64,000 nucleotides of DNA from Escherichia coli (GTDB lineage: Bacteria > Pseudomonadota > Gammaproteobacteria > Enterobacterales > Enterobacteriaceae): assembly GCF_045037415.1 (NCBI RefSeq), contig NZ_CP173438.1. One strand, 5' to 3'. The position numbers were made by a program, and so were the translations under genes. Of the stretch, positions 15,711 through 21,461 are shown in pieces (within the stretch, counting starts at the first letter, position 1; each line of letters opens with the position of its first letter). The notes under the pieces are model-generated. The model was not told the DNA's origin. It made no database searches and saw nothing but the letters and a program-made list of their open reading frames with translations.

Positions 15711-15721
15711 AAGGAGATATG

Positions 15722-15844
15722 ATGGTTCAAATAACTTTTATTGTACTAATATGTGCAGCGTTTTTATGCTATTCATACATTTTGATAAAAATGGGTTTCA
15801 ATTGGAATCTCTGTTGCGTGCAGCGGCATGGTTCGGCTTTGTAG
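15722..15844 (+). CDS. Possible small hydrophobic protein (40 aa) in AT-rich moron
   Basis: AAGGAG RBS at 15711-15716 with 5-nt spacer to ATG; hydrophobic product; a competing 62-aa ORF (15694-15882) uses another frame. Confidence 0.3.
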   Translation: MVQITFIVLICAAFLCYSYILIKMGFNWNLCCVQRHGSAL

Positions 15845-15929
15845 TATTAGGAATTGTATTGTTCGGAAGAATAATAAAATAACTAGTTAATTTGTGGATT
15901 GGTGCTGTTTTTCCATGATAGGGGTAATT

Positions 15930-16310
15930 ATGAGAAAAGTATTTTTGATTTTTGGATTTATGCTTCTCGTTGGATGCCAGTCAGCTGCACAGTTTGAAAG
16001 AAATATGCTTACGTGGCGCGGGCAGAGTATAGACGCAATGGTTCAGCAGTGGGGGTATCCTCAGGGAGAGCTTACATCTCCAGATGGAAACAGAGTGTAT
16101 GTTTACTCAAGCTCTGGTAGTTATAACGTACCACAAACCACAACGTATAATACTACGTCTAATCTAATTGGTAATACTATATATTCAAACACATACGCAA
16201 CAACTGATGGCGGTTATACACTCCATTTCAGTTGCTCTGTTTACGTTGAGTTTGGTGCTGATAAGATTATTAAAAATGTTACATGGCGCGGTAATAATTG
16301 CGTTGCGTGA
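15930..16310 (+). CDS. Lipoprotein (moron), 126 aa
   Basis: Signal peptide MRKVFLIFGFMLLVGC with lipobox LLVGC; AT-rich context; terminator directly downstream. Confidence 0.7.
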   Translation: MRKVFLIFGFMLLVGCQSAAQFERNMLTWRGQSIDAMVQQWGYPQGELTSPDGNRVYVYSSSGSYNVPQTTTYNTTSNLIGNTIYSNTYATTDGGYTLHFSCSVYVEFGADKIIKNVTWRGNNCVA

Positions 16311-16319
16311 CATGTCACA

Positions 16320-16343
16320 GGCCGCTTTCGCGGCCTTGTTTTT
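16320..16343 (+). terminator. Rho-independent terminator after lipoprotein gene
   Basis: GGCCGC-TTTC-GCGGCC hairpin followed by TTGTTTTT. Confidence 0.7.
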
Positions 16344-16503
16344 AACGAATGCCACCGCCACCCGGGCGGGAATCCGCAGAACGCCCACCGCAGCGGGAGC
16401 CGTCAGCAGCAGTGTCGCTGTCGTGCTGACAACGACCGGCAAAGGCCTGAGTTGAAGCTACCAGAGACAACAAAACGAACAGTGCAGCAAATGCTTTTTT
16501 CAT
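16342..16503 (-). CDS. Possible small secreted peptide (53 aa)
   Basis: Signal-peptide-like N-terminus MKKAFAALFVLLSLVASTQAFA; GC-rich low-complexity mature part with two Cys; weak RBS. Confidence 0.3.
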   Translation of the reverse strand: MKKAFAALFVLLSLVASTQAFAGRCQHDSDTAADGSRCGGRSADSRPGGGGIR

Positions 16504-16575
16504 TGTGAAATTTCCATCTATAAGCCACCTCAATGTGGCGTCAATGAGTGTAGCACTGACTTTTGTTTCGTCCAC

Positions 16576-16597
16576 AAAAAAGCCCGCGCTGCGGGCT
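16576..16597 (-). terminator. Rho-independent terminator of the reverse cassette
   Basis: GCCCGC-GCT-GCGGGC hairpin followed by a U-run on the minus strand, directly after the 16602 stop. Confidence 0.7.
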
Positions 16598-16601
16598 TCT
16601 A

Positions 16602-17234
16602 TTAATGCAGTTTATCTTTGCTTATAACCAGTAGTCTGTGGGTATGCACATCTTTATCACTGCCCCAACAGAAATCAGCCCACTGGCTATAGAAATCATC
16701 CCATGATGTCATGAAGCTAAGAGGTCTATCTTCTTCAGAGCCATCTGAAACGTATACATTATATCCTGGGGTGTTTATAGCCCAAGAAATCATTCTTTCC
16801 CAGAATCTTCTCCCATCGATTGTTTGTTGCTCATCAGATACAACGATCGCATATTGCTCTAGGAAGAACTGAAAAAAAATCTGAGGCAAACCATGAACAG
16901 CACGGTCATGAATAACATTAGGCGTACGCCATACCATGATCTGCGTACATGTTCTTTTGGCTTCGACGATATCTTCCCGAAAGATTAACTTAACCGCATA
17001 CACCGTTTCTGGAGTATCGCTGGTAGTAATCATTCTGTAATGATCGCCATTACAAGATTTTACAAGGCGATAACCATAAGGTGTTGTGAATCCCGGAAGA
17101 ACGAAATCAACCACACCTTTCGCTAAGTAGCTTTCGGTGTGACTAGTGTTCTTCTCAGACATGTTCAGTTTTCTATCGAAATCTGCTTCTGGGATAATGT
17201 ATGGCATCGCTTTTCTTGTTGTATTTGTTCTCAT
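16602..17234 (-). CDS. Uncharacterised cargo protein, 210 aa
   Basis: Strong RBS GGGAGG 5 nt before ATG; own sigma70-like promoter and operator upstream; no family recognised; AT-rich. Confidence 0.75.
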   Translation of the reverse strand: MRTNTTRKAMPYIIPEADFDRKLNMSEKNTSHTESYLAKGVVDFVLPGFTTPYGYRLVKSCNGDHYRMITTSDTPETVYAVKLIFREDIVEAKRTCTQIMVWRTPNVIHDRAVHGLPQIFFQFFLEQYAIVVSDEQQTIDGRRFWERMISWAINTPGYNVYVSDGSEEDRPLSFMTSWDDFYSQWADFCWGSDKDVHTHRLLVISKDKLH

Positions 17235-17293
17235 TTCGTCCTCCCATGTTTGGCTACAGGACGCGTTTTGAAGGGAAGATTAAAAATGCTTTC

Positions 17294-17308
17294 TTACCCT
17301 TGAGGTAA
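17294..17308. promoter_or_regulatory. Operator-like palindrome TTACC-N5-GGTAA (copy 1) overlapping the start region of the 16602-17234 gene
   Basis: Perfect 5-bp inverted repeat with 5-bp spacer; abuts the predicted -10. Confidence 0.5.
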
Positions 17309-17336
17309 TAGTACGCTATTCACCCCCAGTCTGCAA
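17308..17336 (-). promoter_or_regulatory. Sigma70-like promoter for the 210-aa gene
   Basis: Minus-strand TTGCAG-N17-TACTAT, about 75 nt upstream of the ATG. Confidence 0.45.
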
Positions 17337-17380
17337 TCTGTACAGAATTATTTAAAGGCACATCCCTGTGCCGCCGCCCG

Positions 17381-18037
17381 TCAGAAGAACCCTGCCTTGT
17401 CGTTGATGTACTCCGCGTGCGTCTGGATATCACGCAGGCATTTGCTCACACCAACGATGTAGCAGAACATGGTGGTCAGCTCCGCCGCCGCGCCCGATAC
17501 GTCGTGCCCGTCGTCCTGTAACTGGTTCAGCAGATTCATCAGCAGTGAGTTCTCCGTCAGGCCGAGAACACCAGACGGCGAGTGAATCAGGCTGCGGTAG
17601 CCGGGCTTCAGTGGGGCACTGTATTCTTTTTTGTCTTCCAGCTTGATCGCCTCCATAATGGCGGGCATGAAGCCTGACAAGACCTTCTCCACTTTTGTTT
17701 CTTGTTGTCTTAAACGTTTCTCGCATTCAATGAAGTAGCGTCGCACCTGGCGACCTTTTTCGTTACGCTCGACCATCGCCAGCTCTTTGGCTGTATCAAG
17801 GGTGAGGTGGTACTCTTTGCGGTTGTGGCCGCCTCTACCAGATGTTTGCTTTCCCAAATTGGAAAGCAAAATATAGTCTTGATTTTCAATGAATTCGTAT
17901 TCTGATATGCGATTTGTAATCCATGCTGCAAACACCTTTTTAACACCTAAAAAAGCGTGCAGATCGCGGGCATTACAAAGTAGGGCTGTTTCGTTAGATA
18001 TAGTGCCGTTGAATACGGGGATGAGTTGAGCGTTCAT
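17381..18037 (-). CDS. Antirepressor-like protein: AntA-type N-terminal domain plus C-terminal domain paralogous to the small SOS-controlled protein
   Basis: GGAG RBS; N-terminal motif [27 protein letters not shown] typical of AntA/AntB antirepressor domains; C-terminal 70 aa about 40% identical to the 18357-18614 product. Confidence 0.65.
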
Positions 18038-18196
18038 GATGGCGTCTCCACTTAGCGAATTACATCACCACCGCTGAGAACCAATCAGATGGTGGTGAAC
18101 TGAACGGAGTTGGTCTTACCGGCCTAAGTGGTACCGGCGTCCTTTCGGACCCCCATTCAGCCCACCATAATTCTGGCATGACTGTGCTATACGCAT

Positions 18197-18218
18197 AAAA
18201 AAACCACGTCTGGCGTGG
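18197..18218 (-). terminator. Putative rho-independent terminator between the small SOS-controlled gene and the antirepressor gene
   Basis: CCACG-N5-CGTGG hairpin followed by seven U on the minus strand; short stem. Confidence 0.4.
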
Positions 18219-18308
18219 TATGCGCCACTTAGTAATCCGGGAGAACCAATCCCGGCACTGGATTTTGCCAGTGCCCGATTACTATGGCACAAGAGGAGTG
18301 CGATGTAA

Positions 18309-18327
18309 ATTTACCGCAAAGGTAAAT
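18309..18327. promoter_or_regulatory. Operator-like palindrome ATTTACC-N5-GGTAAAT (copy 2)
   Basis: 7-bp inverted repeat with 5-bp spacer, same core as copies 1 and 3. Confidence 0.45.
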
Positions 18328-18356
18328 ATAAGCACTCCATTTGGTAATTTCAAACC

Positions 18357-18614
18357 TTATCTGGTTTGTTTTCGTAATTGTTCGGCACAATAGTCGAGAT
18401 GTGTTTGCAGATCCTGCATAGACATCTGTGAGCTGGTGACGTAGTTAATCAGTGCAGTCAGTTCGGCAAGTGGGCCATCGACATTAAATCCATCCTTATC
18501 GAGATCCCGGAGTAATTTCATCAAGTGCGATCCCTCCACCAGTGACCTGACGCCTCCCGGCGTGTGAATCCTTTCGGTAAATCCGTCTTCCAGTGGATAG
18601 TGATACTGCTGCAT
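18357..18614 (-). CDS. Small SOS-box-controlled protein (about 85 aa), candidate SOS-inducible antirepressor
   Basis: GGAGAA RBS before ATG at 18614; LexA box 19 nt upstream; homologous to C-terminus of the adjacent AntA-like protein; ORF track extends to 18737 but upstream part covers promoter and operator. Confidence 0.6.
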   Translation of the reverse strand: MQQYHYPLEDGFTERIHTPGGVRSLVEGSHLMKLLRDLDKDGFNVDGPLAELTALINYVTSSQMSMQDLQTHLDYCAEQLRKQTR

Positions 18615-18633
18615 CTTATCTTCTCCATGCAAT

Positions 18634-18653
18634 AACTGTATATTTATACAGTA
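18634..18653. promoter_or_regulatory. LexA (SOS) box
   Basis: AACTGTATATTTATACAGTA matches the E. coli LexA consensus TACTGTATATATATACAGTA at 18 of 20 positions, with CTGT-N8-ACAG intact. Confidence 0.75.
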
Positions 18654-18689
18654 GCAAATAATTTGTTTGCTATCCAGCACGTTTTGCAA

Positions 18690-18706
18690 ATTACCTGAAA
18701 GGTAAT
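18690..18706. promoter_or_regulatory. Operator-like palindrome ATTACC-N5-GGTAAT (copy 3) upstream of the LexA box
   Basis: Perfect 6-bp inverted repeat with 5-bp spacer. Confidence 0.5.
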
Positions 18707-18809
18707 ATCTATTCGTATTTACAGCCTTTCTATCCATATGTGGTTTTCCAGGTAATAGAATAACCAGATATGCGGCGCAACGGGTGCTGCGACTATCTGG
18801 AGATTTAAC

Positions 18810-21461
18810 ATGACGGTTTCAACCGAAGTTGACCACAACGAATACACCGGTAACGGAGCTACGACATCATTTCCGTATACCTTCCGTATTTTCAAAAAAT
18901 CCGACCTGGTTGTTCAGGTGTCTGACCTGAACGGGAACGTAACAGAATTGGTTCTGGATACTGACTACACAGTAACCAATGCTGGAGGATATAATGGCGG
19001 TAATGTAATTCTGTCGAAGGCGTTGGCTAACGGTTATCATATTTCTATATCACGAGAGCTCCCGGTTACGCAGGATACTGATTTGCGTAATCAGGGTAAG
19101 TTCTTCGCTGAGGTACATGAAGACGCGTTCGATAAACTGACAATGCTTATTCAAAAGTGTTTTTCATGGATGAGGTTAGCACTTATAAAACCAAGCATTC
19201 TGGCTAACTATTATGATGCAAAAAATAATAAGATATCAAATCTAGCAAATGCCACTGACAGAAACGATGCTGTCAATAAAGGTTATGTTGATGATCTTTT
19301 TACTGGAGGTGTAACGCCTACATCTAACAGCGCTAAAAACGATATTTTTACAAATCACCAAAGAAAGATTGTAGCTACGATGCCGCTTCTTTTTCCTGAA
19401 TATGATGCGATTATGGCTGCTAACCCGTCAGCAACTTATATGTATCCTCAAGGATTCTGCGTTAGCGAAGATTTGATATACATCACTTATCCATTTGAGC
19501 CTAAACAGACGAATAATGTCGTCGCAGTATTTAACATATCTGGTATTTATCAAGGTTATTTCTATGTTCAGGCTGGCGGCCCAGGCTTCGCTGCTGAAGG
19601 AATCGTGGTTACGTCAGACTATGGCCCCAAAAAAATGTTTGTTGGTCACACAAACGGAATACTGCGTGAATTTAATATGGAGGGGGCATTATACGGAAGC
19701 AATCTGCCTCTTGTACAAAACCATGATGTTGGATTATTCAACCAGTTCAGCTACAGAAGAGGTATATGGCTCGTTGAGCAGAATGCGCCAGAAGTAGGAC
19801 AGAAAATCACAAGAACTGTACTTGCAGTGTTCGACAGTGGTTTCAATCGCCTGTCAACTATAACGCTGCCGTTACATGATGTTGGGTATGTAACTAAAAG
19901 CACCTCACCTTATGCGCCTTATTTCAACAAGCGTCAGGGTATTGCGGTAGGTGATAACTACTTTGTCTGCGGCTATGGCGGCTTCATAGCTGATGGGGCA
20001 GGAAGCGCAGGATATAACGAATATCAGGGCAGCAAAGTTTTTAACCCTGACGGTACAAAGCGAACTGAATCAATGCTTCATCCTCAGGCCATGATGGATT
20101 TAATGAAAGCCGCAGGATTGAACGTCACTCGCATAGAAAATGAAGGCGTTTGTGTTTCTCAGGATGGAAAATCCATTTATTCACTTTACATTCATCAGGA
20201 AAGAACTGGCTCTGAACCTTACAATTCAGGTTTGGTTATTTTCGAAGATTTCTCCACTGATAAAGATGCTATCGATTTTACACCTGCATCCAGGCTTTAC
20301 CGCGGATTTGATATCGATCACGCGAGCATTGGGGTATATCCCCGTAGTGCGAAGGGGATTGTTAACCCTGTAGATGGTACGTTGTTCACTAACATGACTG
20401 AAATTCTTCGCTATATGCAGGAGATGAGTCAGAAGGCATTTAATTTTTACACAGGGACTGTCAGCATTGCTGATATATCTGGCGTGGCAATCCCTTCCAG
20501 CACATATGTTGAAATACTGAATGCGAATAATCAGACTTTTATAGTCAACTATTATTCATCTGATAGTGGCATTAGTTATTTGGTTGCAACTAATCCTTCT
20601 GGTGACTTTGTATTTGTGCGCCAGCGACCGGCACAGTGGGCATCTAACTTAACCATTCAGCAAAACGCAGATCCTGATACAAACCAATTAAACCGCATCA
20701 CTGCATCATCATATGCCGGTGCAACTACAAACTCTCAGAAAATATTGGTCCTTGACCAGCAGGCTACAGCTAGCGCAAATAGCTTGGTATTGGGCGGTAG
20801 TTCTTCTGTGTTTAGGTCTGCCACCACGGTGGATATTGCATGCAACAGCGACCCGACAGCATTGGGAGGAACCATACGCTGGCGGTTTTATGATACAGGT
20901 CTTCGCCCGTTTGCTGACAATACCTATAATTTTGGTCAGGCATCGTTTCGTATTAAAGACGCCTACTTTGCAAATGCCCCAACCGTTTCATCAGATGCCA
21001 CGCTGAAAACCAATCCCGAGGCAATATCAGATTTAAGTGAAATGCTTTCTTCTGATAGAGACAGCATTCTTGATGCCTGGGGCGATATTTCTGTTGTGGC
21101 GTATCGATGGCTCGACGCTATATCCATGAAGGGCGATGGTGCCAGATGGCATTTTGGCGTCATGGCTCAGCAGGTAAGGGATGTATTCTTGGCGCACGGA
21201 ATTGATGGAACCAGATTTGGCCTTCTTTGCTATGACGAGTGGGATGATATTTTTGAGCCGGTAATCGCGACTAAAGAGATTACCGATACGTCTGGTGAGT
21301 TGGTCACCGTCGAATATGACACCGGAGAACAGAGGCTGGTTAAAAAAGCGGGTAGTTCATGGGGTATACGGCCTGACCAGTGCGCTTGGCTTGAGGCTGC
21401 ATATCAGCGCCGTCGATGCGATCGTATTGAAGAGCGACTCGAACTATTGGAATCAAAATAA
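18810..21461 (+). CDS. Tailspike protein with C-terminal intramolecular chaperone (peptidase S74-like) domain, 883 aa
   Basis: RBS CTGGAG; conserved-looking N-terminal virion-anchor region; C-terminal block (RWHFGVMAQQVRDVF...) resembles the self-cleaving chaperone domain of endosialidases and tail fibres. Confidence 0.75.
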   Translation: MTVSTEVDHNEYTGNGATTSFPYTFRIFKKSDLVVQVSDLNGNVTELVLDTDYTVTNAGGYNGGNVILSKALANGYHISISRELPVTQDTDLRNQGKFFAEVHEDAFDKLTMLIQKCFSWMRLALIKPSILANYYDAKNNKISNLANATDRNDAVNKGYVDDLFTGGVTPTSNSAKNDIFTNHQRKIVATMPLLFPEYDAIMAANPSATYMYPQGFCVSEDLIYITYPFEPKQTNNVVAVFNISGIYQGYFYVQAGGPGFAAEGIVVTSDYGPKKMFVGHTNGILREFNMEGALYGSNLPLVQNHDVGLFNQFSYRRGIWLVEQNAPEVGQKITRTVLAVFDSGFNRLSTITLPLHDVGYVTKSTSPYAPYFNKRQGIAVGDNYFVCGYGGFIADGAGSAGYNEYQGSKVFNPDGTKRTESMLHPQAMMDLMKAAGLNVTRIENEGVCVSQDGKSIYSLYIHQERTGSEPYNSGLVIFEDFSTDKDAIDFTPASRLYRGFDIDHASIGVYPRSAKGIVNPVDGTLFTNMTEILRYMQEMSQKAFNFYTGTVSIADISGVAIPSSTYVEILNANNQTFIVNYYSSDSGISYLVATNPSGDFVFVRQRPAQWASNLTIQQNADPDTNQLNRITASSYAGATTNSQKILVLDQQATASANSLVLGGSSSVFRSATTVDIACNSDPTALGGTIRWRFYDTGLRPFADNTYNFGQASFRIKDAYFANAPTVSSDATLKTNPEAISDLSEMLSSDRDSILDAWGDISVVAYRWLDAISMKGDGARWHFGVMAQQVRDVFLAHGIDGTRFGLLCYDEWDDIFEPVIATKEITDTSGELVTVEYDTGEQRLVKKAGSSWGIRPDQCAWLEAAYQRRRCDRIEERLELLESK

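Follow-up and report, generated by a model that had tools for sequence, protein, structure and literature searches.

The 64,000 nucleotide stretch of Escherichia coli DNA analyzed here (from contig NZ_CP173438.1 of assembly GCF_045037415.1; "the window" below) contains the right half of a prophage resembling phage epsilon15, from the portal gene to the lysis cassette, beyond which the E. coli chromosome continues with yfgI, pdeF, ppx, ppk and onward. The subject of this report is its tailspike gene (Table 1), whose 883 amino acid (aa) product matches PHROG 1171 ("tail spike protein") with 728 bits; the open reading frames (ORFs) around it match PHROG families of tail, internal virion, holin and endolysin proteins. 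Over its first 344 bases the gene aligns at the nucleotide level with the tailspike gene of epsilon15 (77.7%). The same gene, in the same context and 99.5–99.9% identical, is present in 18 of 5426 complete E. coli genome records ("carriers" below), where it is annotated merely as "tail fiber domain-containing protein". A promoter and terminator scan around the gene found no more sites than in shuffled sequence. As a tailspike the gene is ordinary; its product has three parts.

Table 1. Features of the tailspike gene in the window, and capsule loci of two carrier strains
Feature	Coordinates	Strand	Basis
Complete tailspike gene of the epsilon15-like prophage	18810..21461	+	ATG at 18810, stop ends 21461; single ORF, 883 aa
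Virion anchor, epsilon15 gp20 type, aa 1–~163	18810..19298	+	Homology to epsilon15 gp20
Five-bladed beta-propeller, putative capsule-recognition domain, aa ~180–490	19347..20279	+	
Small alpha/beta domain past the propeller, aa ~500–606	20307..20627	+	AlphaFold2, Foldseek, HHU-22 conservation
Stalk of the mature protein, aa ~607–727; holds GGTIRWRFYDTG and helper residues D703 and R714	20628..20990	+	Model and structure alignments
Intramolecular chaperone (peptidase S74), aa 728–883	20991..21458	+	PF13884, 3gw6 alignment
Nord58 kps locus	L011:2722-18443		
B19695 kps locus	L012:1-9218		

The original prediction, made from the letters of the DNA, placed a virion anchor in the N-terminal ~150 aa, and this is borne out by homology to the particle-binding domain of epsilon15 gp20. 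The anchor spans ~163 aa and is 61% identical to gp20 in a 232 aa alignment (E 9e-78) in which similarity decays past ~aa 165. Residues 1–130 match domain D1 of the solved Dpo31 tailspike structure (28lx/8ck1; E 2e-25), and many PHROG tail families match aa 1–165 alone.

The other end of the protein is a chaperone of the peptidase S74 type. The Pfam profile Peptidase_S74 (PF13884) matches aa 728–797 with 47.1 bits against a curated cut-off of 22 (E 2.9e-12), and the chaperone structure of the phage K1F endosialidase (3gw6) aligns to aa 665–883 (E 4e-39). In that alignment S728 is matched by an alanine in the deposited 3gw6 chain and K733 by a lysine; the alanine we take to be a replacement of the scissile serine, that is, a noncleaving mutant. 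S728 and K733 sit in the sequence SDATLK, with the lysine five residues past the serine. The spacing of D703, R714, S728 and K733 (11/14/5) is the same as that of D1239, R1250, S1264 and K1269 in phage T5 pb1, which have been assigned to its autoproteolytic mechanism (PMC4690869). Because of the 3gw6 alignment and the match to the T5 pb1 spacing, cleavage is predicted between S727 and S728 and would free 156 residues. A self-cleaving S74 chaperone had been proposed from a block of three motifs; with the profile, the structure alignment and the intact cleavage residues (the Ser/Lys pair as well as the upstream helpers Asp and Arg) all pointing the same way, that assignment very probably stands. 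All three motifs are present (GGTIRWRFYDTG at aa 686–697, RWHFGVMAQQVRDVF at aa 779–793 and YDEWDD at aa 808–813), but GGTIRWRFYDTG had been counted within the released domain and, being upstream of the predicted cleavage site, should instead be part of the mature stalk. Residues 665–727 align to the precleavage part of 3gw6, and aa 637–727 align to 9vvr. The monomer model is weak over the stalk, with predicted local distance difference test (pLDDT) values of 47–84 and aa 608–727 low, which is expected because the structure of the stalk presumably needs the trimer.

Between these two ends, Pfam and NCBIfam searches gave no family match, and none to a beta-helix family. An exhaustive phmmer search with aa 161–640 found 284 cluster representatives at E ≤1e-3 (111 of them at E ≤1e-30), whose common core corresponds to aa ~183–595. 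From an alignment of 142 members of this family AlphaFold2 predicts, with confidence, a five-bladed beta-propeller (mean pLDDT 87.8, predicted template modeling score 0.81, pLDDT >92 over aa 180–600). It is followed in the model by a small domain of one helix and a five-stranded sheet (pLDDT >88) that appears to resemble a tower domain of Gp45, the receptor-binding protein of staphylococcal phage phi11, and that is kept up to aa 579 in a protein of Staphylococcus phage HHU-22. The best Foldseek matches of the model in the PDB are 9m7x, 5efv, phage 80alpha gp61 (6v8i) and the P68 tail fiber (6iab), with E values of 1e-9 to 1e-11; the alignments to Gp45-type proteins run over 569–596 columns, nearly the whole query. 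Among viral models the best match is the tail fiber of Staphylococcus phage vB_SscM-1 (E 5e-34, template modeling score 0.68). There are no beta-helix structures among the top fold matches of the central model, and a right-handed beta-helix depolymerase was rejected, since the model is a propeller and no beta-helix Pfam family is found. When the profile of the 142 members was compared with PDB sequences it matched the chaperone part of 3gw6, plus Cj1041c at a nonsignificant level (E 0.65).

Several polar residues of the propeller are conserved, namely Q214, E263, R335, K374, Q376, E443 and E445. Across the 142 sequences, which come from very different hosts, Q376 and E443 never vary, and the conservation of K374 and E445 is 99%. 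By the secondary structure of the model, most of the conserved polar residues fall at the first strand of one blade after another or immediately ahead of it, a position that lines the central funnel in propellers, so that all seven would be expected to face the funnel here. The original prediction had seen no obvious beta-helix in this region, as Pfam, the AlphaFold2 model and the fold searches all confirm, and had suggested a propeller-type glycanase. The propeller half of that suggestion agrees with AlphaFold2 and Foldseek; the glycanase half is at most a possibility, the closest folds being those of proteins treated in the literature as nonenzymatic teichoic acid binders; a match of the center to a nonenzymatic fiber fold, which had been named as the outcome that would speak against it, is thus partly realized in the staphylococcal receptor-binding proteins.

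Gp45 consists of a five-bladed propeller and then small domain(s) and is treated as a nonenzymatic binder of teichoic acid (PMC4901313), and the closest-fold staphylococcal receptor-binding proteins are likewise treated as binders without catalysis (PMC4901313, PMC12860735). The modeled center of the E. coli tailspike has this platform layout (a five-bladed propeller plus a small beta-rich domain) and is a member of an unnamed family with the Gp45-type fold. The sequence link between the two is indirect, through the HHU-22 protein alone. Over 404 aa the receptor-binding protein of HHU-22 shares 32% identity with the E. coli propeller (E 2e-54); it retains residues that match E263, K374, Q376, E443 and E445, its N-terminus matches the phi11 Gp45 stem (E 1.6e-6), and its gene occupies the receptor-binding protein slot adjoining BppU. 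This protein (L004:2087-4099, XRA13965.1) is a chimera of a Gp45-type stem and a propeller whose sequence is nearer to that of the E. coli tailspike than to that of Gp45; immediately upstream of it is a gene for an SGNH/GDSL hydrolase. The start of the propeller module (LPLxFPxY...YxYPQ in the E. coli and HHU-22 proteins) resembles Gp45 aa 445–472 (L005:7200-9110) at a nonsignificant level in both phmmer and hhalign; that part of Gp45 is the start of its tower and not of its propeller, and the resemblance is probably due to chance.

Homologs with the same core are found behind P22 head-binding, CBA120/G7C-type Tail_spike_N and P2-type fiber anchors, behind the T7-type gp17 N-terminus (in Kayfunavirus, 71% and 42% identical) and in the position of a Mu-like fiber. 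By these comparisons the module seems to be exchanged among anchors, in slots where depolymerizing tailspikes sit. One relative (P0031, 1395 aa) carries a GDSL/SGNH esterase domain past the propeller at aa 824–1033, and one from Avibacterium (P0007) has a gp53-like C-terminal domain in place of the S74 chaperone. An incomplete search of the literature found no characterization of this propeller family in phages of Gram-negative hosts and no K2-specific phage protein, and papers on phages 6947 and HC6 gave no receptor data.

Since the host of a temperate phage should carry its receptor, the capsule and O-antigen loci of the carriers are informative, a logic previously applied to Klebsiella prophage depolymerases (PMC12491483). 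One carrier, strain 2/0, has an O locus with an "O25 family" flippase, and region 2 of its kps capsule locus encodes a CDP-glycerol (CDP, cytidine diphosphate) glycerophosphotransferase-family protein and a cytidylyltransferase-like protein. A 1 kb piece of this glycerophosphotransferase gene, 100% identical in CFT073, the K2 reference strain (PMC12488582), was used as the K2 marker in chimeric BLAST queries that joined the tailspike core to the marker, two matched places in one record being taken to mean that both are present; the background is the 5426 complete genomes. The K2 marker is present in 16 of the 18 carrier records, as compared with 140 (2.6%) of all the genomes (Fisher p 2e-24, or 1e-16 with near-identical isolates collapsed). 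The excess is seen within O25 hosts, where all eight carriers are K2 versus 73 of 459 genomes (15.9%; Fisher 3e-7, collapsed 8e-5), and also outside them, where eight of ten carriers are K2 versus 67 of 4967 genomes (1.35%; Fisher 3e-14, collapsed 1e-10). A fiber of a Mu-like prophage (P0004, L013:3001-5376), 791 aa long with an S74 domain and a propeller core that is 53% identical, is an independent replicate of the K2 bias. It is present in 57 genomes, every one of which has a polyol-phosphate marker (54 K2 and three of the ribitol type), and in none of the ~5150 genomes with neither polyol-phosphate marker. Both prophages occur together in Ecol_AZ146, C25, P4/FP4, Ec55, A1.S1.18 and Nord58. 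The claim that the receptor could not be inferred is correct for the sequence alone; comparative genomics does better, in that the gene tracks the K2 locus and not the O type.

K2 has been called "a teichoic acid-like polymer" (Jann et al. 1980, as cited in PMC13171606), and according to the same source K18, K22 and K100 are ribosyl-ribitol phosphates (Rodriguez et al. 1988, as cited there). In carriers, DUF6088 and AbiEii-type toxin genes lie directly upstream of kpsF (L009:15787-17068, L011:2-1324), which agrees with the capsule-linked toxin-antitoxin system of CFT073 (PMC12488582); Nord58 and B19695 have a frameshift in the AbiEii-type gene.

Of this picture, the three-part architecture and the fold are established directly, and so are the presence of all the cleavage residues and the statistical association with K2 loci. 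The interpretation that we favor, with a probability of roughly 0.68, is that this is the tailspike of a temperate epsilon15-like E. coli podovirus, made of an anchor, an S74 chaperone and a propeller that recognizes the K2 capsule by way of its funnel. The N-terminal ~163 residues would dock the spike trimer onto the tail. The chaperone formed by the C-terminal 156 residues would drive trimerization of the stalk and then cut itself off at S728 by means of a Ser-Lys dyad. The propeller and the small domain would recognize the group 2 K2 capsule, a galactosyl-glycerol-phosphate polymer of teichoic acid-like type, and the recognition site would be the polar funnel at the center of the propeller (the seven residues named above). 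The spike would determine host range, and the genomic association points to the K2 capsule as its receptor; that the funnel is the K2 binding site is suggested by the model. Since the propeller is homologous to staphylococcal modules that bind wall teichoic acid, one device seems to serve polyol-phosphate polymers of both Gram-positive and Gram-negative hosts. The propeller might in addition depolymerize K2, as a phosphodiesterase or a glycosidase, an activity that short-tailed phages would appear to require; the odds of this are about even.

Several points weigh against this interpretation. The presence of the marker was read from the number of matched places per record, which is not formal K-typing. 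The link to K2 is an association among lysogens, part of which could stem from common descent of K2 lineages, although it holds in two O-type strata and in two unrelated prophage types. The conserved residues of the funnel might have a structural role or bind metal and not the ligand. Sequence homology to phi11 Gp45 was sought and not found (the family hhalign probability is 3%, and the Smith-Waterman score lies within those of shuffles), so the relation to Gp45 itself is one of fold. Finally, two of the 18 carriers, Nord58 and B19695, are not K2. These two share another region 2, which encodes a CDP-ribitol-synthase-like bifunctional cytidylyltransferase/short-chain dehydrogenase-reductase enzyme and a TagF-like polymerase, and because of this gene content their capsule is probably of a ribitol-phosphate type such as K18, K22 or K100. 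The exceptions may be due to capsule switching after lysogeny or to cross-recognition by the tailspike. The Nord58 annotation marks a frameshift in kpsM, and the kps locus of this strain is closely followed by a CTX-M-15/OXA-1 resistance island.

A stronger form of this interpretation, which does not contradict it, makes the propeller a true K2 depolymerase. The galactosyl-glycerol-phosphate repeat would be hydrolyzed at its phosphodiester or its galactosidic bond, and the Glu/Glu/Lys/Gln funnel would be the active site, possibly a metal-dependent one. The module occupies the sole tailspike slot of short-tailed phages (Kayfunavirus gp17 and the P22-type anchor), which is the home of bona fide depolymerases, and the invariance of Q376 and E443, with the near-invariance of K374 and E445, would suit catalysis. 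Halos surround the plaques of the siphovirus vB_Eco_ZCEC08, which has a ~42% identical tailspike (PMC12001532), but this is evidence from a 42% identical homolog on an untyped host. The nearest folds are regarded in the literature as noncatalytic binders, and by eye the phi11 Gp45 motifs MQSF, PMQGI and EAEGL appear similar to those of the conserved residues; such residues need not mean catalysis. A five-bladed propeller with catalytic acidic residues in its central funnel is also the hallmark of glycoside hydrolases of the GH43/32/62/68 type, to which the tailspike propeller may or may not belong. The esterase domain added in P0031, and the label glycerophosphodiester phosphodiesterase on a related PHROG, hint that separate domains provide the enzymatic activity in some relatives. 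On balance we put a true K2 depolymerase slightly short of an even chance. The wider proposal that the propeller family is a new class of capsule-specific enzyme, which both recognizes and cleaves polyol-phosphate polymers, is a tentative one that we would sooner doubt than accept; if it were true, this tailspike would be the first K2-specific depolymerase of E. coli, and the staphylococcal "platform" propellers would belong to the same ancient teichoic acid-targeting lineage, swapped between phages of Gram-positive and Gram-negative hosts.

Quite different targets are improbable. The phage backbone is epsilon15-like and the epsilon15 spike is an O-antigen endorhamnosidase, so the tailspike might be thought to act on O-antigen (for example, the O25b of sequence type 131) with the K2 link a by-product of lineage, and O25 is indeed enriched among the carriers (eight of 18, versus a background of 8.5%). 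The other ten carriers have no O25 flippase gene, yet eight of those ten are K2, and every O25 carrier is K2 where 15.9% would be expected. O25 was rejected as a common host factor, being present in only eight of the 18. Contrary to epsilon15, there are no seroconversion genes past the spike, and the related propeller of the Mu-like prophage has the same K2 bias; we judge an O-antigen target to be unlikely. Much less likely still is an endosialidase, that is, a depolymerase of the K1 capsule. This identity is suggested by the label "endo-N-acetylneuraminidase" on homologs in phages U8, ZCEC08, PBM-2 and ST1UNAM and by the K1F endosialidase (3gw6) being the strongest match to a solved structure, but that match is limited to the end of the stalk and the chaperone, Pfam finds no endosialidase catalytic family even at E ≤1, the propeller is five-bladed with best fold matches to Gp45-type proteins and not to sialidases, and the carrier hosts have K2-type and not K1 loci. 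An endosialidase of glycoside hydrolase family 58 (GH58) was thus rejected at the domain level, where no catalytic propeller family was found and only the chaperone is shared. Since the K1F similarity is so confined, the labels are probably wrong, a recurrent misannotation that arises where the shared chaperone alone matches K1F. The U8 tailspike (L003:754-3609) and other ~42% identical ones carry the label, and it is also used in print (PMC12001532).

Between the virion genes and the tailspike gene lies an accessory region (window positions 15,711–18,809) that is not the same as in strain 2/0 (L001:15284-19805). In the window it contains a 210 aa ORF of unknown function (phrog_1349), an Ant antirepressor gene (17381..18037, minus strand) and a 126 aa ORF; in strain 2/0 two YafO-family toxin genes replace part of it. 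The 126 aa ORF (18,357–18,737, minus strand) lies just upstream of the tailspike gene and shares its C-terminal ~85 residues with the C-terminus of Ant (phrog_450, phrog_15539), and it has the look of an Ant C-terminal domain that was duplicated or truncated.

The interest of the gene is moderate and lies in the inference of a receptor and in the cross-phylum reuse of a teichoic acid recognition module. Among the capsules of extraintestinal pathogenic E. coli, K2 is a major one (its marker is present in 73 of the 459 O25 genomes), and a 2025 list of K types with known phage depolymerases omits it (PMC12488582). A protein that binds or depolymerizes K2 specifically would help in capsule typing, in capsule stripping and in the choice or engineering of therapeutic phages. 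Beta-propeller tailspikes are at present the least predictable class of depolymerases (PMC12491483), and the suggestion that one module is reused for staphylococcal wall teichoic acid and for the teichoic acid-like capsules of Gram-negative bacteria gives a concrete, testable rule by which a phage receptor might be predicted from fold.

Among known systems epsilon15 gp20 is the closest at the N-terminus: it shares the anchor with the E. coli tailspike, comes from the same type of phage and is likewise encoded after the internal virion proteins. It differs in that its relatives are annotated as right-handed beta-helices (and the gp20 record refers to an HHpred similarity with the 9NA tailspike), in that it has no S74 domain and in that seroconversion genes follow it. 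At the other end, the neck appendage gp12 of phages phi29 and GA-1 ends in a self-cleaving chaperone of the same type (3gud, E 1.3e-19; the GA-1 appendage is also matched in BFVD, E 4.5e-11). The phi29 gp12 acts on teichoic acid and its catalytic part is a beta-helix, and relatedness to the E. coli tailspike is seen for the chaperone region alone. The K1F gp17 tailspike (3gw6, 3GVJ) shares the overall plan of an exchangeable anchor, a propeller-containing center, a trimeric stalk and a released S74 chaperone, and versions of the E. coli propeller module stand in for the endosialidase in Kayfunavirus gp17. The K1F propeller is a GH58 sialidase with six blades and a nested barrel, whereas the E. 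coli tailspike has a five-bladed propeller and is associated with the K2 rather than the K1 capsule. In fold the nearest relatives are phi11 Gp45, 80alpha gp61, NF5 Gp17 and the P68 tail fiber, in which a propeller "platform" is joined to tower domains; Gp45 is carried by a helical stem on a siphovirus baseplate and has no self-cleaving S74 chaperone, whereas the E. coli tailspike has an epsilon15 podovirus anchor and a Gram-negative host.

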